A DNA stretch of 64,000 nt, from positions 1 through 64,000 of the IMG/VR virus record IMGVR_UViG_3300049432_000151. The stretch is one strand, 5' to 3'. Shown here in pieces: positions 31,885 through 40,448 of the stretch. Made by a program: the position numbers and the translations under genes. The notes under the pieces are model-generated. The model saw only the letters and a program-made list of their open reading frames with translations. It made no database searches and was not told where the DNA came from. Numbering within the stretch: position 1 is the stretch's first letter; each line of letters begins with the position of its first letter. This stretch comes from a virus.

Positions 31885-32514
31885 ATGCTTCCCTACGTCC
31901 AGTCGTACAACGACCCGAAGATCGAGAAGGCGTATCACCGCTACCTGAAGGGTGACTCTCAGCGGGCCATCGCCAAGGCGCTGAACATCCCGCCGCGGAC
32001 GGTCGCTCGGTACTGCAAGAAGGACGGCTGGCAATCGGAGCGTGAAGCCCGTCACGTGGCAGCAGAGGCCCCAAACGTGGCAGCAGTGGCAGCAACCGTC
32101 CAGACGCCTGCTGCCACCGAGGGACCTGTTCCGGAGAGTCGGATGGTCGGCATGGAGCGGATGCTCGGCGCACAGCAGCAGCTCACCGGGCTACTCGTCG
32201 AGGCGTTCAAGAAGGACGTCGAGAAGACGATCGCCGACGCGGCCACTGTCGGCAAGCCGATGAGCCGGTCGCAAATCGCGCAGCTCACGTCGCTCGGCAA
32301 CAACCTGCTAACGATGCAGCGCAAGGCGTGGTGTGTACCGGACAAGATCGAGACGAAGGACACCACGCCAACCGCGCCTGATCGCGTGCGCACCCTGAAG
32401 GATGACGAACTCCAGAACCGCCTCACCGAGGCCCGTCGAGCTCGAGAAGAGGCCGATCGAAGAAGAGGAGCTGCTGCTCCTCGAGGAGGATCTGCGACGC
32501 CGAGCGTCAACTAG
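31885..32514 (+). CDS. terS: Terminase small subunit
   Basis: N-terminal HTH (SQRAIAKALNIPPRTVARY...GW); immediately upstream of TerL. Confidence 0.75.
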   Translation: MLPYVQSYNDPKIEKAYHRYLKGDSQRAIAKALNIPPRTVARYCKKDGWQSEREARHVAAEAPNVAAVAATVQTPAATEGPVPESRMVGMERMLGAQQQLTGLLVEAFKKDVEKTIADAATVGKPMSRSQIAQLTSLGNNLLTMQRKAWCVPDKIETKDTTPTAPDRVRTLKDDELQNRLTEARRAREEADRRRGAAAPRGGSATPSVN

Positions 32515-33958
32515 CCTGCACGAGTTCGTTGCGCAGGCGTGGCACGTCGTCGAGCCCGCAGTACCGTTCAAAGACAACTGGCACGTCGGCGCGATCTGCG
32601 AGCACCTCGAGGCCATCTACCGGGGCGAGATCCTGCGGCTGCTCATCAACGTTCCATTCCGCACGGCGAAGTCCACGATTGTCAGCGTCATGTCACCGGC
32701 GTGGCAGTGGATTCATCGGCCGGCTCACAAGTTCCTCTGCGGGTCGTACGCGGCGAAGCTGGCGATCCGCGACAACCTCAAGATGCGGCGGCTGATCCAG
32801 TCGCCGTGGTACCAGGAGCGCTGGGGCCGCGGCTTCAACCTCGTCGACAACAGCGACTGGGGCGACCCTGACGGCTTCAAGCTCACGGACGACCAGAACC
32901 AGAAGGTCCGGTTCGAGAACGACCGCACCGGATACCGCATCGCGTTCGGGTTCGACGGCGGCGTGATGGGCGATGGCGGCAACACCGTCATCATCGACGA
33001 CCCTCACGATCGCAACCAGGCACACTCCGAGAAAGAGCGCGACAGGCATCTCACCACGTTCGACGAGGCGGTTACGACTCGTCTCAATGACCCAACGCGA
33101 GATTCGATCGTGATCATCATGCAGCGACTGCATGAGAGCGATCTCTCAGGTCATGTGCTCGCGAAGGGCGGCTACGAACACGTCCTGATCCCGATGCACT
33201 ACGACCCGAAGCGGTCGCGTGTGACGGTAACCGGGTGGGAAGATCCGCGCACGGAAGAGGGCCAGTTGATGCACCCCGATCGGTTCCCTGAGCCGGTCGT
33301 CGCGCAGATCGAAAAGGACATCGGCCCGTACGCGGCGGCCGGGCAGCTCGAGCAGCGACCCGCGCCATCGGAAGGCGGCATCCTCAAAAAGCAATGGTGG
33401 CGGTTCTACAACGACGACGAGCTGCCGGAGACGTTCGATCGCGAGTGCCAGATGTGGGATCTCGCGTTCAAGAAGACAAAGACGTCGAACTTCATCGCTG
33501 GCCAGGCGTGGGGCAAGAAGGGAGCGAACTGCTACCTGAAGCCCGACGAGGTCTACGCGCGGCTCGACTTCCCCGAAACGATCAAAGCAATGAAGGCGTT
33601 CTCGGTCCGGTATCCGCGCGGAGCTAAGCTGGTCGAGGACAAGGCCAACGGGCCCGCGGCGATCTCGACGCTGAAAAATGACATCGCGGGCCTCATGCCC
33701 GTGGGCGAGGACGGCGGAGCCGAGGGCGTTGCGCATTCAGTCGCTCCATACATAGCCGCTGGCAACGTCTTCCTGCCGAACCCATACGACCGCCAGGGCA
33801 ATCAGCGGCCTGACCGCGCTTGGGTATTGAGGCTCATCGCAAACGCGGCAACGTTTCCGAACGGGTCCATTCCGGCCGGGTCGCACGGTGACGACATCGT
33901 CGCGATGGTTTACGCAATTCACTACCTGATGCACCGACCGAAGGCGAGGGTGATCTGA
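32402..33958 (+). CDS. terL: Terminase large subunit
   Basis: INVPFRTAKS, IIDDPH, IIMQRLHESDL, QLEQRP, WDLAFK, VEDKANG, HGDDIV. Confidence 0.95.
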   Translation: MTNSRTASPRPVELEKRPIEEEELLLLEEDLRRRASTSLHEFVAQAWHVVEPAVPFKDNWHVGAICEHLEAIYRGEILRLLINVPFRTAKSTIVSVMSPAWQWIHRPAHKFLCGSYAAKLAIRDNLKMRRLIQSPWYQERWGRGFNLVDNSDWGDPDGFKLTDDQNQKVRFENDRTGYRIAFGFDGGVMGDGGNTVIIDDPHDRNQAHSEKERDRHLTTFDEAVTTRLNDPTRDSIVIIMQRLHESDLSGHVLAKGGYEHVLIPMHYDPKRSRVTVTGWEDPRTEEGQLMHPDRFPEPVVAQIEKDIGPYAAAGQLEQRPAPSEGGILKKQWWRFYNDDELPETFDRECQMWDLAFKKTKTSNFIAGQAWGKKGANCYLKPDEVYARLDFPETIKAMKAFSVRYPRGAKLVEDKANGPAAISTLKNDIAGLMPVGEDGGAEGVAHSVAPYIAAGNVFLPNPYDRQGNQRPDRAWVLRLIANAATFPNGSIPAGSHGDDIVAMVYAIHYLMHRPKARVI

Positions 33959-34245: not shown

Positions 34246-36684
34246 ATGAGGAACTTTCTTTCACTCCGCGGAGCCGGCGTTCTGCCTGGTATTCCGCGCA
34301 GTGACTCGTCTCCTCTCGCCGGCTTGCCCGTCCTGTTTCCGAACGGCACTCAGTCGCGTGACGGTGCTGTGTTCACTCGCGACCAGCCACCCGGAACGCA
34401 GCGACGCACGCACGACGAGATCGCATGGGAGGCGGTCAACCGTCTCTTCAGCTCGTCGCAGATGACGGGAACGTACGCGCCGAAGGAGGCATACGCGCTG
34501 TCGCCATGGATGGCGCCGGCGATCAACGCATTCGCAGGGACCGTGGCAGCTCGGACCTTCCGCGTCATGGAGCGGAAGAAGGTGCTCGACGAGCACTGGC
34601 TCCTCGACCTGATCGCACGCCCCAACAGGATGCTCCGCACGAGCGAATACGCGCTGCTGTACTACACCGCCGCGCTGTGGCGCTACGACGGCGAAGTGTT
34701 CTGGGAGCTTGAGTACGGCAGTGACCCAAAGAAGAAGCCGGGTGACCGCCGAAGCGTCAAGGCGCAACCCACAGCGATCTGGCTCTGGCACCGCGGCTGC
34801 GTGACGCCGGCGCTCGACTCGCGGACCCGCGAGTTCCTCGGATGGGAGATCAATTTCGAAGGCGCTCGGAAGTTCGTTGATCGCCTCGACATGCTGCACC
34901 TCCCGCAGTTCGACCCAACGAAATTCAATCCGCTCGGCCCATCGCGCGGCACGTCGATCTGGCAGGCGAAGCGTCTCGCGATGACAAACGAGATCCGCGC
35001 GCAGCGTTGGAATACCGAATGGTGGAGTCGCGGTATCGCGCCGTCAGTCGCGTTCGTGAACAAAGATGGCAACGCCGTCGGCGACTCGCCGGAAGCGGAA
35101 GAGCAGTTCTTGGCCAAAGTGAAAGCGAAGGTCGCCGGAAAGAACGGCGAGCCGATGCTATTCCTCGGTGACTGGGTCATCCAGCAGCTCGAGGCCTCGC
35201 AGCGCGACGCTCAGTTCATCGAGGGCATGGACCAGAACCGTAAGGCGATCCTAGCCGGCAACACGCCGCCGATTGCGATGGGTGACAACGAAGCAAACTA
35301 CGCGAACGCCAATGCGCAGATCAAGGCGTGGCTGTCGTTCGACGTCATTCCTGCTCTTTCGTTCTTCGCATCGTGCATCGACGTCACGTTCATTTACGAC
35401 GAGCCGCGGATCTGGACGGACTTCTCGACCGACGACATCGATGAGCTGCAGGAGGGCAAGGCAGCCCGTGTCGAACGGTATGTGAGCCTCATCCAGGCGC
35501 GTCACTCGCCGAAAGTCGCGGCACAGATCGCCGGCATCGACGTTGACCCGAGCATGCCCGGCTACGACCAGGTGTTCCTCTCGTTCTCGCAAATCCCGTA
35601 CGAGTACGCCGTCGAAGGCCAGAGCGTCAGCGTGTCAAAGGATGACGACCCAATGGGCGCCGACGCCGTACCAGCACAACAGGCCGCGGCTCGACCGAAA
35701 CCCGTCGGGCAGGCAGCCGCAGACGAACCGACACCGCCAGCGGCCGCCGCCAAGAACGTCGAGCCAGCGCAGCGGACCCTCCGCATCGCGGTGCCGACCG
35801 ATCCAACTCCGACACGAATTGTGAAGCCTATGTCATCCCGAGCCGCAGACAGGGCTGACGACAAGATTCTCCGCGTCATTCTCGAGATCGTCGGCAAGGA
35901 CACGAAGAAGCTCCGAGACAAGTCGCGTACATACCAGCTCCGCGCGTTCCAGGTCGGAACGGAGCAGGTCGGGAACGCTCTCGGTTTGGAGAAGTTCCTG
36001 CCGATCGACAACCCGCGTGTGATCGCGTTCCTTGAGGAGCGCGGCAACCTCATAACGTCGGTCCCGGAAGGCGTGGCGAACCGCATCTTCGCGAAGACGA
36101 CAGGCCTGATTGAGAAGGGCACTACGCCGGAAGACATCGGGACCATCATCCGCAAAGACTTCAACGTCCTCTCCGACTTCAAGGCGAGGCAGATCGGCCG
36201 GCAGGAAGTCGGCTCAGCGCTCAACGGCGGCCGTCACCTGCAGATGGTCGAAGAGGGCGTCGACGGTCGCGAGTGGCTATCGTCGAAAGACGCGCGCGTC
36301 CGGGACTCTCATGTCAGCGTCGACGGTGAAGTTGTCGAGGGCGTCGACGCGAAGTACTCGAACGGATTGCGCTACCCGCAGGATCCGGAAGGCGACGCAT
36401 CAGAGACGATCAACTGCCGATGCATTGAACTGCCTGCTGTCGGCGGCGGGCAGCGCGCAGCTCGTTGCGCCGCACACCTGCGCGCGATCGGCGCGCTGGC
36501 CATTCGTGAGGCTGCAGCACAGAACGAAACGATCGACGAGCGCGCCGGGTACTGGCGTGCAGTCGTGCTGGCGAAGGATGTTCGGGCGATCGAGCGGCAG
36601 ATGGCCAGTGCCATCAGCTCGGTCATCAACGGCTGGCGCGCGCCGATTCTGAAGGCGCTCGCTGAACTCGGCGTCGCGAAGTAG
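34246..36684 (+). CDS. Portal protein fused to MuF (SPP1 gp7-like) head morphogenesis domain
   Basis: HK97-type portal motifs (LIARPN, DGEVFW, RDAQFIEG, NYANA) followed by EWLSSKDARVRDSH...YPQDP...INCRC. Confidence 0.88.
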   Translation: MRNFLSLRGAGVLPGIPRSDSSPLAGLPVLFPNGTQSRDGAVFTRDQPPGTQRRTHDEIAWEAVNRLFSSSQMTGTYAPKEAYALSPWMAPAINAFAGTVAARTFRVMERKKVLDEHWLLDLIARPNRMLRTSEYALLYYTAALWRYDGEVFWELEYGSDPKKKPGDRRSVKAQPTAIWLWHRGCVTPALDSRTREFLGWEINFEGARKFVDRLDMLHLPQFDPTKFNPLGPSRGTSIWQAKRLAMTNEIRAQRWNTEWWSRGIAPSVAFVNKDGNAVGDSPEAEEQFLAKVKAKVAGKNGEPMLFLGDWVIQQLEASQRDAQFIEGMDQNRKAILAGNTPPIAMGDNEANYANANAQIKAWLSFDVIPALSFFASCIDVTFIYDEPRIWTDFSTDDIDELQEGKAARVERYVSLIQARHSPKVAAQIAGIDVDPSMPGYDQVFLSFSQIPYEYAVEGQSVSVSKDDDPMGADAVPAQQAAARPKPVGQAAADEPTPPAAAAKNVEPAQRTLRIAVPTDPTPTRIVKPMSSRAADRADDKILRVILEIVGKDTKKLRDKSRTYQLRAFQVGTEQVGNALGLEKFLPIDNPRVIAFLEERGNLITSVPEGVANRIFAKTTGLIEKGTTPEDIGTIIRKDFNVLSDFKARQIGRQEVGSALNGGRHLQMVEEGVDGREWLSSKDARVRDSHVSVDGEVVEGVDAKYSNGLRYPQDPEGDASETINCRCIELPAVGGGQRAARCAAHLRAIGALAIREAAAQNETIDERAGYWRAVVLAKDVRAIERQMASAISSVINGWRAPILKALAELGVAK

Positions 36685-36712: not shown

Positions 36713-39073
36713 ATGCCGGACATCATCACGCCGTTCGAGATCGCGCGGCACCCACTCCGCGGCACGAAAGAGATCAGCTCTGAACGGATCGTGCTCGTCG
36801 CCGCCGAGATGCGCGCGGCCGATGGCGCGAGCGACGAGCGGCCGATCGTCGAGATCACTTCGACGTCGACCGGTGAGGATCGCCACGGCTCGACGATCAT
36901 CGAGTGGGACGACGCCACGTTCATGCGCACCGGTCACGTGTTGTGGGCGCACGACATCGTTCCGGCATACCCGTTCGTGGGCAAGAAGCTGTCGTCTCGG
37001 AAGGTGGGAAACAAGTCGGTCTCCGAGGTCGAGCTGCTCGTCAACCTGTGGCGCCACATGAACTGCAATCTCGCCGCGTTCCTCTGGGAGGCGTACCGCG
37101 ATCACGGGATGGGCGCCATGTCCCGGGCGTTCATTCCTAAGGTGTGGAAGAACCGGACAGCGACCACGATCCCGACCGAGCTCGCGGAGAACATCGAGTA
37201 CCTGAAGGTCGAGCAGACCGAAGAGAGCTTCGTCAACGTGCCTTCGAACCGCGACTCTTTGGCACGCGCCATCGAACGTAAGCGCACTGCCGGCACATTC
37301 AACGACCAGCTCGCCCGGATGCTCGGATACGAGTTCACGCCGATCATCCTCCGAACTGAAAAGGAACCGTCAATGCCGACACGTACCCTCGAGTCTTTCC
37401 GATCCGATCTCGCGGGAGTTCTCACCCGCTGTGGATGTGAGCCGTACCGCGAGCCGAAACCCGAATCGCTGACGGACGAAGAGAAGACCACAGAGCTCGC
37501 GCTAATGACGGAGATGGCGGTCGCGATCCTCGCCACCATGGATGTCGCGCTGCGCGGCTGGAAGGCGACCCTCGAGAACTTTCAAAGGAACATCTACACG
37601 AACGTGGTCGTCGACGCGATGTATCGCATCGAGGGCCTGATCTGGCGCGCGAAGGAATGGTACGGGGCAGACCTCGTTCTCGCGATTCCGGAGCTCAGTG
37701 CCGACGATATGGAGAGGATTGCTTCCGCGGCGCCTGGCGCTGCAACTCGAGGTATCCGCTACGTCCAGCGCACGGTTCTGCCGACGACCGAGCGAGCTGC
37801 AACGCGCGCGAAGGTGACGGAACTCCTCCGCTGCTGCGGCTGCGGTCCTTACGAGGAACCGAAGCCCACGCTTCCGTCAGACGACGCGACGCGCGCTGCC
37901 GAAGTGACGATCCTCCGTGAACTCGCAGATCTCGCGATGCAATTGGCGGAAGCAGGCATGAGAGGCTGGAAGGGCGCCGAGACGGAGCAGTTGCGCGGCA
38001 TGTCGTCGAGCCGCGTTTACGACGGCATGTGGCTCTTCGACTGGTGCGCCCGCTCACTGAGTGAGTGGTACGGCGAAGAGATTGACGCGATGCCTACCGT
38101 CGATCTCGTCGAGGTGGAGCGCGCATTGAAGGGCAGCGTGGCTGGGATCCGCGCCGGCGCCGTATTCGCGAAGAAGAACCTCGAGAAGATCGACCAGGTC
38201 ATCGAGATCATGACCGAGCTCCGTGCGGCCGCGAACAAGCCGACCGCGGACGACATCCCGGCGGAGGAGCGCAAGCGTCAGGCTCGAGCTGTTCAGTTCA
38301 TCCGAATGGCCGGGCCGTTTGAGTTCGCGTCAACGCAGGTGAATCTTGAAGGCGAGGCGGCCGAGAAGATCCTCGCCCTGGCCGCGACGATTCCTGATGA
38401 CGCGCTTGCAGAGAAGGGTCGCGAGACCGAACCGCACGTGACGGTGAAGTTCGGGATAGATCCAGAAGTCGGCGCGGTGTCGCTCGCCGAGACAATCGAA
38501 AACTCCGACTCCGCGAAGGAGATGGCAGAGCGCGGCGCAACGATGACACTCGGTGCGACCGCAATCTTCGAAGCTGACGAATATGACGTCGTCTTTGTCA
38601 CGGTCGACTCCCCCGACCTCCTCCTGCTGAACAAGATCATCTCCGAAGACGTGCCGGTCACGGACACGCATCCTGAGTACATCCCGCACGTGACGCTCGC
38701 CTATGTGAAGAAGGGCGAGGGTCAGAAGTTCGCCGGCGACGAGACTCTCGCCGGCACGATCGTCACGTTCGACGCGATCACCTACTCCGACGTCGACGGG
38801 AACACTACGGACATTCAGTTCGCCGCCGAAGCTGCCCGAGCCGAAACGGAGACCGGTGAACGCAGCGGCATCCGGATCAACGGCGTGCCGATCGAACAGA
38901 TCGCCGGCGTGACCTCATTCATCAGAATCAAAGACACCGGCAGCGTGGCGCGCGAGCACGTCACGACCAGCCAACCCATTCGTGTGCTCGCACCGGACGC
39001 TTCGCGAGATCGCCGCGAGGAGAGTCCCGCCACCGGGCGATCAGGTCTTTACGTGAAGCTGCTCAGCGACTGA
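36713..39073 (+). CDS. HK97-type prohead protease plus duplicated helical domain plus 2H phosphoesterase (Acb1-like)
   Basis: DRHG, LWAHD, MSRAF, EESFVNVPSN; two CGCxPYxEPKP...GWK...EWYG repeats; PHVTV and PHVTLAY motifs. Confidence 0.85.
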   Translation: MPDIITPFEIARHPLRGTKEISSERIVLVAAEMRAADGASDERPIVEITSTSTGEDRHGSTIIEWDDATFMRTGHVLWAHDIVPAYPFVGKKLSSRKVGNKSVSEVELLVNLWRHMNCNLAAFLWEAYRDHGMGAMSRAFIPKVWKNRTATTIPTELAENIEYLKVEQTEESFVNVPSNRDSLARAIERKRTAGTFNDQLARMLGYEFTPIILRTEKEPSMPTRTLESFRSDLAGVLTRCGCEPYREPKPESLTDEEKTTELALMTEMAVAILATMDVALRGWKATLENFQRNIYTNVVVDAMYRIEGLIWRAKEWYGADLVLAIPELSADDMERIASAAPGAATRGIRYVQRTVLPTTERAATRAKVTELLRCCGCGPYEEPKPTLPSDDATRAAEVTILRELADLAMQLAEAGMRGWKGAETEQLRGMSSSRVYDGMWLFDWCARSLSEWYGEEIDAMPTVDLVEVERALKGSVAGIRAGAVFAKKNLEKIDQVIEIMTELRAAANKPTADDIPAEERKRQARAVQFIRMAGPFEFASTQVNLEGEAAEKILALAATIPDDALAEKGRETEPHVTVKFGIDPEVGAVSLAETIENSDSAKEMAERGATMTLGATAIFEADEYDVVFVTVDSPDLLLLNKIISEDVPVTDTHPEYIPHVTLAYVKKGEGQKFAGDETLAGTIVTFDAITYSDVDGNTTDIQFAAEAARAETETGERSGIRINGVPIEQIAGVTSFIRIKDTGSVAREHVTTSQPIRVLAPDASRDRREESPATGRSGLYVKLLSD

Positions 39074-39170: not shown

Positions 39171-40448
39171 ATGGCTACCAAAGATGTGACGCTCAATGAC
39201 GTTGCCAATTTCGTCTTCGAGCAGATGTTCAACGACCCGAAGCTCCGTGAGGTTCCGGAGAACGAGCGCGCGGCATACGTCGCCAAGCGCTTCAATGCTC
39301 TCGCCGAGGAAGTCGCTGAGGCTCGCGCCGAGGCGAAGGTCACCGGCATCCGCACGCAGATGACCGAGCTGCAGTCGGCGATGACCGAGATGCAGGAGCG
39401 CGCGACGCGCGCCGAGAAGTTCCGCGCCAACGACCACGGCTTCCACCGCGGCATCGATGGCAAGCTCCAGCCGAACGTCTCCCGCGAGACGGCGGAGACG
39501 CTCGTCACGATGATCCGCGCCATGAAGGACAAGGAGTTCGAAAAAGCACGCGCCGTTTCGAGCGGCGTGGGCGCTGAAGGCGGATTCCTCCTCCAGACCG
39601 ATGTCGCTGCCGACATCCTTCGCCTCGTCCCTGACACCGGTCTGTATCCGCAGATTGCGCGTCCGTGGCCGATGGGAACGAAGAAGGTCGACATCGGCAG
39701 CGTGCTCTCTCAGATGGGTGCGTACTGGCCCGAAGAGAACAACGCGATCACGCCGAGCTTCCCTGGCTTCGGAAAGGTCTCGCTCGAGGCGAAGTTGCTC
39801 GGCGCGCTGATCCCAGTTCCTCTGACACTCATCGAGGATTCCACCCCCGAGCTCGGCCAGCTCTTCGCTGATCTGATCCGGGAGTGCATCGCACTCGAGA
39901 TTGACCGCGTCGCCATCGTAGGCAAGTCGGCCGCGAACGGCGGAACGGATCCGTTTGACGGTCTGCTCAACTCCACGGGCATCAAGGTGAAGGTCATGGA
40001 CAATGGCCACACCTCGTTCAAGAACATCGGCTGGGAGTATCTGCAGGACCTGCAGGACACCGTGCCGGAAGGTGCTCGCGACGACAACTCGTACCTCATC
40101 AACCAGTCGGTGTTCAACTTCCTGCGCAAGCAGAAGGACGCCGACGGTCAGCCGATCTGGCAGCGTCCTGCTGACGGTGAGCCGGGCACGTTGTGCGGTA
40201 AGCCGTACTTCAAGACCGAGCGGATGCCGGCGTACAGCGCGGCCGCTCAGCCTTCCAAGCGCAGCGCGCTGTACGGCAACTGGAAGAAGTGGGCAATCTT
40301 CGGCAACCGCAAGGAGCTGACGATCGCCACCTCTGACGTTGCGGGTGACGCATTCAAGAACGTGCAGCTGATCCTGCGCGGAATCACGCGGGTCGGCTTT
40401 GCTTCGTTCGGGCCAGCGATCTCCACGCTCGAGACTGCGGCGAACTAG
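39171..40448 (+). CDS. Major capsid protein (HK97 fold, with N-terminal coiled-coil delta-like domain)
   Basis: EGGFLL, AYWPEE, KLLGALIPV..TLIEDS, LRKQKDADGQPIW, LYGNW. Confidence 0.93.
   Translation: MATKDVTLNDVANFVFEQMFNDPKLREVPENERAAYVAKRFNALAEEVAEARAEAKVTGIRTQMTELQSAMTEMQERATRAEKFRANDHGFHRGIDGKLQPNVSRETAETLVTMIRAMKDKEFEKARAVSSGVGAEGGFLLQTDVAADILRLVPDTGLYPQIARPWPMGTKKVDIGSVLSQMGAYWPEENNAITPSFPGFGKVSLEAKLLGALIPVPLTLIEDSTPELGQLFADLIRECIALEIDRVAIVGKSAANGGTDPFDGLLNSTGIKVKVMDNGHTSFKNIGWEYLQDLQDTVPEGARDDNSYLINQSVFNFLRKQKDADGQPIWQRPADGEPGTLCGKPYFKTERMPAYSAAAQPSKRSALYGNWKKWAIFGNRKELTIATSDVAGDAFKNVQLILRGITRVGFASFGPAISTLETAAN

Follow-up and report, generated by a model that had tools for sequence, protein, structure and literature searches.

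Introduction

Two-histidine (2H) phosphoesterase domains have been described in phage polyvalent proteins and as fusions to the MuF or portal proteins of the head, where they were proposed to act as RNases or to degrade nucleotides generated by host systems that counter invaders (Iyer 2017, PMC5512222). In the same account, polyvalent proteins bear their assemblin-like peptidases at the C-terminus. In a later survey, the MuF and portal fusions were taken to suggest packaging in the head and injection against signaling by SMODS, cyclic nucleoside monophosphates (cNMP) and CRISPR systems, and a capsid-processing serine peptidase was named as a carrier for Nudix domains (Iyer 2022, PMC9503650). 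The present work concerns a gene of the IMG/VR virus record IMGVR_UViG_3300049432_000151 in which a 2H domain shares a single uninterrupted open reading frame (ORF) of 786 residues (positions 36713–39073, + strand) with a domain that appears homologous to the HK97-type prohead proteases. The window analyzed is the first 64 kb of this linear record of 85,049 bases.

Among the characterized phage 2H enzymes, T4 Acb1 (gp57B) is a solo protein of 150 residues. Doherty 2025 (10.1101/2025.08.21.671373) groups it with the 2H phosphodiesterase (PDE) PDE-9 (PDB entries 9Q2G and 9Q2Y) in structural group 3; PDE-9 has an N-terminal lid, cleaves 3'3'-cyclic GMP-AMP (3'3'-cGAMP) and spares 2'3'-cyclic di-AMP (2'3'-c-di-AMP). 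In Acb1, by contrast, the mobile lid is C-terminal (residues 145–152; PMC9117128). The catalytic tetrad of FBB1 Acb1 consists of H44, T46, H113 and T115, and the ligand is contacted by the base-stacking residues Y12, W74, F107 and W147 and by the adenine-reading residue E141 (PMC9117128). Multi-domain proteins account for 13 of 75 phage 2H PDEs in Doherty 2025, the main text of which lists ‘proteases’ among the additional domains and gives the details in Supplementary Table 2. A megaphage preprint deals with solo Acb1 only, which was not detected in the megaphage proteome. Prohead proteases are linked to CBASS, an antiphage defense that signals through cyclic oligonucleotides, by a report that they cleave a loop of the CD-NTase (the nucleotidyltransferase resembling cGAS and DncV) and thereby activate CBASS (PMC12991175, 2026). 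Beyond the mention of ‘proteases’ by Doherty, a search of the open-access literature, supplements aside, turned up no account of a prohead protease-scaffold protein that bears a 2H or Acb1 domain, and none of an experimental packaging test of any head-fused 2H domain.

By sequence, the 2H domain studied here falls into the same clade as the polyvalent, MuF and portal 2H proteins of Iyer 2017 and 2022, and among the best-listed matches its closest relatives outside its own family are fusions with portal or MuF (52–62% identical), after which come giant proteins with ART-PolyVal, GGDEF or Zeta toxin. The logic is also alike, in that an effector is fused to a head-internal protein; ART-PolyVal, GGDEF, Zeta toxin and M48 domains are hallmarks of the polyvalent class. 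The carrier differs: here the domain is borne by a prohead protease-scaffold protein whose protease is N-terminal, whereas MuF and portal are the carriers named for 2H domains by Iyer (PMC5512222, PMC9503650). With T4 Acb1 and PDE-9 the domain has in common the HxT/HxT tetrad, a match to phrog_755 and a conserved Tyr three residues before the second catalytic His. In contrast to T4 Acb1, however, it is ~30 residues longer, fused and late-expressed, carries a His at the position of F107 and does not reach the gathering score of the Acb1 family PF23474. A head-packaged 2H enzyme that counters nucleotide signaling was already predicted in 2017 and 2022 (PMC5512222, PMC9503650); new here are the protease-scaffold protein as a 2H carrier and clear swapping of the 2H cassette between adjacent head genes.

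Results

Architecture of the protease-2H gene

All features of the gene lie on the + strand. The predicted protein, as read from the ORF list and its translation, begins with an HK97-type (S78-like) prohead protease domain (residues 1–215, 36713–37357), assigned from PHROG matches, ESM Atlas and motif alignment. This is followed by two tandem Cys/helix repeats of ~115 residues each (residues 222–345 and 346–480, 37376–38152), recognized by BLASTP and homologue alignment, and by a helical motif, RAGAVFxKKNLxKIDQ (38150–38257), that stands before the 2H insert. The 2H phosphoesterase domain itself, identified by Pfam, PHROG, ESM Atlas and hidden Markov model (HMM) searches, spans residues 532–704 (38306–38824), and the protein ends in a conserved tail (IRIKDTG..REH..IRVLAPDA..YVKLLSD, 38849–39070). 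The helical motif and the tail were both defined from the family alignment. The original prediction, made from the letters of the DNA, had placed a 2H domain fused to the prohead protease at 38305–38825, with two HxT motifs about 84 residues apart. The ESM Atlas-aligned boundaries agree with that placement, a real 2H domain is encoded in the same ORF as the protease-like domain, and the two catalytic histidines, H575 and H659, are exactly 84 residues apart.

The two motifs are EPHVTVKFG (residues 573–581, 38429–38455) and YIPHVTLAY (residues 656–664, 38678–38704), which contain the first catalytic motif, H575-V-T577 (38435–38443), and the second, H659-V-T661 (38687–38695). The domain alone (residues 530–715) matches PF13563 (gathering threshold (GA) 27) with 36.6 bits and E 5.8e-9, and the whole protein with 31.6 bits; at E<=0.01 this family is also matched by 16 of the 17 head-family copies of the domain. 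Other Pfam scores for the domain alone are 22.1 for PF02834 LigT_PEase (GA 23.3) and 15.6 for 2H-SAK. Conservation was assessed in a clade set of 163 domains, comprising the 17 head-family copies and 146 domains from the 150 best-listed representatives of a wider search. The first motif retains its His in 163/163 and its Thr in 162/163 of these domains, and the second retains its His in 162/163 and a Thr or Ser in 155/163, such that both histidines are present in 162/163 and the full HxT/S tetrad in 153/163. The ten exceptions are one replacement of the second His by Arg (homologue P0009), seven HxC, one HxA and one HxM; the seven HxC domains are more distant clade members. Within the 17 head-family copies, H46, T48 and T132 (domain numbering) are invariant and H130 is nearly so. 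An ESM Atlas structure search with the domain returned viral clusters with mixed PF13563/PF23474 labels at a template-modeling (TM) score of 0.83; for the protein as a whole, ESM Atlas offers only a low-quality model (predicted TM score 0.29). The domain is the sole 2H domain in the 85-kb record (pv2H HMM, 225 bits). Judged by these matches, it is a real 2H phosphoesterase, far beyond chance, and it looks catalytically intact.

A word-based search in which 8000 candidates were scored yielded 25 homologues of the 786-residue protein, nine of which cover 99–100% of the query, and the query plus these homologues form the family alignment of 26 sequences. The 2H domain is optional in this family, being present in 16/25 homologues and absent from 9/25, and in 5 of the 16 bearers it directly follows the N-terminal domain rather than preceding the tail. 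Across the head family, identity to the query is 46–75% in the 2H domain versus 32–66% in the remaining protein; on these alignments, the domain is conserved at least as well as the rest. In the family alignment, both the RAGAVFxKKNLxKIDQ motif and the C-terminal tail are kept in homologues with and without 2H. The tail matches no Pfam or PHROG family, and it may be a capsid-targeting segment. The family members share Cys/helix repeats (CGCxPY ... WYG), of which each has one or two; in the query, the first is 29% identical to the second over 115 residues (BLASTP, E 9e-18), and neither matches a Pfam or PHROG family. Their position in the protein appears scaffold-like. Five homologues (P0015, P0016 and P0023–P0025) have a longer Cys-rich, zinc-ribbon-like insert where the repeats stand.

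Distribution and movement of the 2H cassette

The 2H clade is large. Among 1.84 billion representatives, searched exhaustively, 4287 match at E<=1e-3, a number that falls to 2209 at E<=1e-10 and to 90 at E<=1e-30. Of the 4287, the 150 best listed are mostly proteins of 1–4.8 thousand residues. In the 163-domain set, the proteins that contain the domain are at least 2000 residues long in 61 cases, 1000–2000 in 35, 300–1000 in 60 and below 300 in seven. Four of the large proteins were scanned for other domains, and ART-PolyVal, GGDEF, Zeta_toxin or M48 was present. Three giant proteins (P0040, P0044 and P0035) combine 2H with a GGDEF cyclase, ART-PolyVal or Zeta-toxin, placing signal-degrading and signal-making modules in one chain. 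Another clade member, P0032 (624 residues), contains two or three tandem 2H copies and scores 43.6 bits on PF23474, above GA. The head-protein fusions that constitute the nearest relatives outside the family among the matches listed occur in three arrangements: portal+2H+MuF (P0027, P0028, P0030 and P0031), 2H+MuF (P0029) and portal+2H (P0033, P0034 and P0036).

Sister phages differ in where the cassette lies. A scan of IMG/VR identified six related loci (L004–L009), none of which has a 2H domain in the protease gene. Two of these, L004 and L005, share the gene order of the studied phage and encode capsid homologues matching at E 1e-169 and 1e-148. In both, the 2H domain lies inside the portal-MuF protein (959 and 1034 residues), and the protease gene (584 and 545 residues) is without it. 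The studied phage is the mirror image of this arrangement, with 2H in the protease gene and a portal-MuF protein that lacks it. In the other four loci, L006–L009, neither the portal-MuF nor the protease gene carries 2H.

The history of these exchanges was examined in an IQ-TREE phylogeny of 29 domains picked from the 163, comprising 25 head-protein copies and four others. A branch with support 100/99 has the head-protein copies together on one side, which also holds the outlier P0041. Assigning each copy a protease or a portal/MuF label requires three changes in the maximum-likelihood tree (bootstrap 5–95% range 3–3), and the starred branches alone force only one change. Because three label changes are needed in the tree, the cassette has probably moved between the two adjacent head genes more than once.

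Relationship of the 2H domain to Acb1

The original prediction also described the domain as Acb1-like. Its only clear PHROG match is phrog_755 (37.8 bits, E 2.6e-9; next match E 0.006), on which T4 Acb1 (NC_000866) scores 228.5 bits, alongside 202.7 bits on PF23474. In searches of the PDB, the domain alone matched 9Q2G (E 9.7e-4) and 9Q2Y (E 2.6e-3) best, and a profile built from 12 relatives, most of them solo proteins, matched 9Q2G at E 7.6e-5, the plant CPDase 1FSI at 0.0076 and the FBB1 Acb1 structure 7T26 at 0.12, with no LigT/ThpR entry among the matches of that profile. The alignment to 9Q2G pairs both HxT motifs. When profiles were compared by hhalign, the 163-domain profile gave 96.4% (E 1.2e-9, 81 columns spanning both motifs) against an Acb1 profile built from T4 Acb1 and 76/78 listed proteins (those of at least 130 residues), versus 1.9% against an Escherichia coli ThpR profile whose comparator set is narrow. 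The HMM searches divide in the same way: the Acb1 HMM finds 159/163 clade domains at E<=1e-3 and the ThpR HMM 0/163, and in the reverse direction the clade HMM finds 73/77 Acb1 and 0/114 ThpR sequences. The ThpR HMM has no match in the phage genome, and the ThpR equivalog TIGR02258 scores 21.5 bits versus a cut-off of 65.7.

Of the five Acb1 contact residues, the aligned region covers only W74 and F107, with Y12, W147 and E141 lying outside it. F619 aligns with T4 W73 (equivalent to FBB1 W74) and is Phe in 162/163 clade domains. At the F107 position the studied domain has His653, and the clade has His in 120, Tyr in 19, Phe in 10, Gln in 12 and Arg in 2 of the 163 domains. By these comparisons, the domain lies in a viral clade whose relationship to Acb1 and PDE-9 is remote but specific. 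On its scores, it falls outside the Acb1 family in Pfam's definition, since PF23474 (GA 27) reaches 22.5 bits for the domain alone and 18.4 bits for the whole protein. The description as Acb1-like therefore holds in the sense that the nearest characterized relatives are of the Acb1 type and not ThpR/LigT (phrog_755, 9Q2G/9Q2Y, hhalign and HMMs), and fails as a statement of family membership.

The N-terminal domain

Evidence for the protease comes by several indirect routes. Residues 40–191 match positions 23–165 of phrog_617 (E 4e-6), and HK97 gp4 matches the same part of this family (positions 39–170, E 2.4e-16). The PHROG of gp4 itself, phrog_80, is matched by the homologues P0022 and P0026 (E 7.4e-6 and 6.4e-3). 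In ESM Atlas, 18/30 feature hits of the N-terminal domain are labeled as family PF04586, and by structure the domain matches, at a TM score of 0.63, a cluster in which PF04586 makes up 93%. Adding gp4 to the family alignment with MAFFT --add places its H65 on H80 and the serine of its GMSVGF motif, S114, on S137 of an AMSRAF motif; H65 and S114 are presumably the catalytic pair of HK97 gp4. H80 (36950–36952) and S137 (37121–37123), each at least 90% conserved in the 26 sequences, are thus a candidate catalytic pair. Direct searches gave a different picture: PF04586 (Peptidase S78) has no match at E<=10 on the N-terminal 236 residues or in the whole record, the family-alignment profile of the domain has no match in the PDB, tblastn with the domain has none among 50,697 phage records, and hhalign of the domain alignment against the single HK97 gp4 sequence gives only 1.3%. 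From the transitive PHROG matches, the ESM Atlas results, the motif alignment and the gene position, the domain is accepted, on this indirect evidence, as an HK97-type prohead protease homologue, which bears out the predicted identity of the gene product as a head maturation protein.

Possible internal start and candidate cleavage sites

A possible internal start lies at 37361–37375 on the + strand, where AAGGA (37361–37365) is separated by 7 nt from an in-frame ATG at 37373 (Met221). Met221 stands exactly at the boundary between the protease and the repeats, and 19/26 family members have a Met within three alignment columns of it in a linker that is otherwise variable. In L004, GGAGGAG precedes an ATG at residue 222. 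From these signals, initiation at Met221 may give a protease-free product consisting of repeats, 2H domain and tail, in higher copy. In phage lambda, the C and Nu3 genes are nested protease and scaffold genes, the scaffold product starting inside the protease gene. A nested Met221 product in the manner of C/Nu3 is, by analogy, plausible.

Two further sequence features were noted in this part of the protein. Arg531 (38303–38305), just upstream of the 2H domain, is invariant in the 17 head-family copies, whereas the other 146 domains vary at this position. A candidate maturation-cleavage motif, ‘ARAV’, was spotted by eye at two places, ahead of the 2H domain (QARAVQF) and ahead of the capsid protein's mature part (KARAVSSG).

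Genomic neighborhood

The IMG/VR record is 87% complete by CheckV, has a guanine-cytosine content of ~62%, and no tRNA genes were found in it. The protease-2H gene lies in a late operon in the order large terminase, portal-MuF, protease-2H, HK97-type major capsid protein and tail genes. The large terminase (32402–33958) is upstream of the portal-MuF gene (34246–36684, + strand; PF04860 and PF04233). Portal and MuF form one chain of 812 residues without 2H, joined by a Pro/Ala-rich linker at approximately residues 430–590, and this linker is exactly where the sister phages L004 and L005 hold the 2H cassette. Downstream of the protease-2H gene, the major capsid protein (425 residues, 39171–40448, + strand) matches PF05065 (E 2.5e-32), phrog_10 and phrog_617. 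Residues 22–87 of the capsid protein match phrog_206 ‘head scaffolding’ (E 0.0018), and its N-terminus comprises a coiled, scaffold-like segment of ~130 residues (39171–39560). The phage may therefore have a scaffold of the delta-domain type besides the repeat region of the protease gene. No relatives of the protease-2H family were found among 185,579 species genomes scanned with the family alignment.

Discussion

The order of the domains, the intact tetrad, the kinship with the viral 2H clade and, more remotely, with Acb1 and PDE-9, and the movement of the cassette among sister phages are shown by the sequences. The function proposed on this basis, which is considered somewhat more probable than otherwise, is that of a capsid-assembly polyprotein, in which a catalytically competent 2H phosphodiesterase, directed against a host nucleotide messenger, is capsid-loaded cargo borne by a prohead protease and a scaffold-like region. 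The 2H domain is read as cargo because what its carriers share is residence in the procapsid, not proteolysis. In such a scheme, the protease end, the conserved C-terminal tail or both would bring the chain into the procapsid, and proteolysis during maturation would release the 2H domain within the head. The freed enzyme would then exit together with the DNA in the next infection, or could act at a late stage in the producing cell. Its target would be a host nucleotide second messenger, cleaved by a metal-independent two-histidine mechanism; cyclic di- and trinucleotides of CBASS are the most likely substrates, and signals of type III CRISPR or other oligonucleotide signals are possible ones. 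An analogy for such cargo is offered by the T4 internal proteins, which enter the prohead by means of a capsid-targeting sequence that is cut off by the head protease, and which are ejected with the DNA. The earlier suggestion that the enzyme is packaged for delivery fits the placement of the cassette and the context of the clade.

Several points weigh against this proposal. The usual fate of prohead proteases and scaffolds is degradation and expulsion, so that retention of the cargo is an assumption. As to the classification of the domain, beside the shortfall on PF23474, the LigT_PEase score (22.1) is about equal to the Acb1 score (22.5), and the top Pfam match is the generic PF13563. At E<=0.01, 11/17 head-family copies match PF23474, all below its threshold (best 7.6e-5), and 7/17 match PF02834. 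The ThpR set against which kinship was judged is narrow, being enterobacterial with at least 74% identity. One full-length homologue, P0009, reads IPRITLAY, with Arg for the second catalytic His and the remaining domain kept. Finally, of the seven structural groups of phage 2H PDEs assayed in Doherty 2025, two were inactive on all 18 messengers (10.1101/2025.08.21.671373), and because of this an immune nucleotide as substrate is not guaranteed.

That last result can also be turned toward RNA. In this alternative, which is unlikely, the enzyme would be a Usb1-like RNase or would process 2',3'-cyclic-phosphate or 2'-5' ends, either attacking host RNA or healing RNA cut by host defenses. The label of the best Pfam match, PF13563, is a generic ‘2'-5' RNA ligase superfamily’, LigT_PEase and TIGR02258 give 22.1 and 21.5 bits, an RNase is one of the two options offered in Iyer 2017 for the 2H domains of polyvalent proteins (PMC5512222), and the two phage 2H groups without activity on the 18 messengers (10.1101/2025.08.21.671373) would be accommodated. 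However, the partners of RNA repair are not in evidence: RNA ligases of families PF09414, PF09511 and PF01139, which cover Rnl1, Rnl2 and RtcB, were not found in the 85 kb of the record (87% complete), nor was KptA (PF01885), and Iyer 2017 describes these versions of 2H as never associated with RNA ligases (PMC5512222). The failure of the ThpR HMM on all 163 clade domains, of the clade HMM on all 114 ThpR sequences, and of TIGR02258 to come near 65.7 bits also argues against an enzyme of the ThpR type. Far more improbable still is that the 2H fold serves as a mere non-catalytic scaffold or spacer module. It does lie in the scaffold-like part of the protein, it is missing from 9/25 homologues and the second His is lost in P0009, but a filler would hardly be expected to have an intact tetrad in 153/163 domains and both histidines in 162/163, or to keep its catalytic residues in solo proteins as well as in fusions of unrelated kinds.

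The original prediction had also considered that the phage tethers an antidote to a likely trigger of immunity. The enzyme would then act late, beside the protease that trips CBASS, destroying the signal at its source, and packaging would be irrelevant. By cleaving the CD-NTase loop, prohead proteases are reported to activate CBASS at a late stage of infection (PMC12991175), the 2H domain and the protease are translated in one chain, and the late structural operon provides for their co-expression. This alternative is nonetheless quite unlikely. In L004 and L005, the protease gene has no 2H and the portal-MuF has it instead, which favors cargo over a tethered antidote. Similarly, the protease versus portal/MuF label needs three changes within one clade, and most clade members are found in giant polyvalent proteins or in portal/MuF fusions without a protease. 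The Met221 start, if used, would leave much of the 2H detached from the protease, and a diffusible small-molecule signal would give little reason for a physical link. A combination of tethering and delivery is a little less likely than tethering itself. In this two-phase antidote, the protease-linked chain and an abundant Met221 product of scaffold, 2H domain and tail would, late in infection, mask the CBASS-tripping protease at assembling procapsids, the enzyme freed by maturation cleavage would stay in the head and later be injected to forestall nucleotide signaling in the next host, and the hopping of the cassette would reflect a general strategy of a ‘procapsid-resident anti-signal enzyme’.

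For the capsid-loaded cargo enzyme, which remains the preferred interpretation, the idea has been published before in general terms, and the finding is thus a good example rather than a surprise. Since prohead proteases are a reported direct trigger of CBASS, the protease-linked form is convenient for testing the timing and location of an antidote. If the 2H domain degrades immune nucleotides and is loaded into the capsid, this would be experimental proof of an 8–9-year-old prediction of virion-delivered, signal-degrading enzymes. The sister phages, with the cassette on the protease-scaffold protein, on portal-MuF or absent, constitute a natural experiment.

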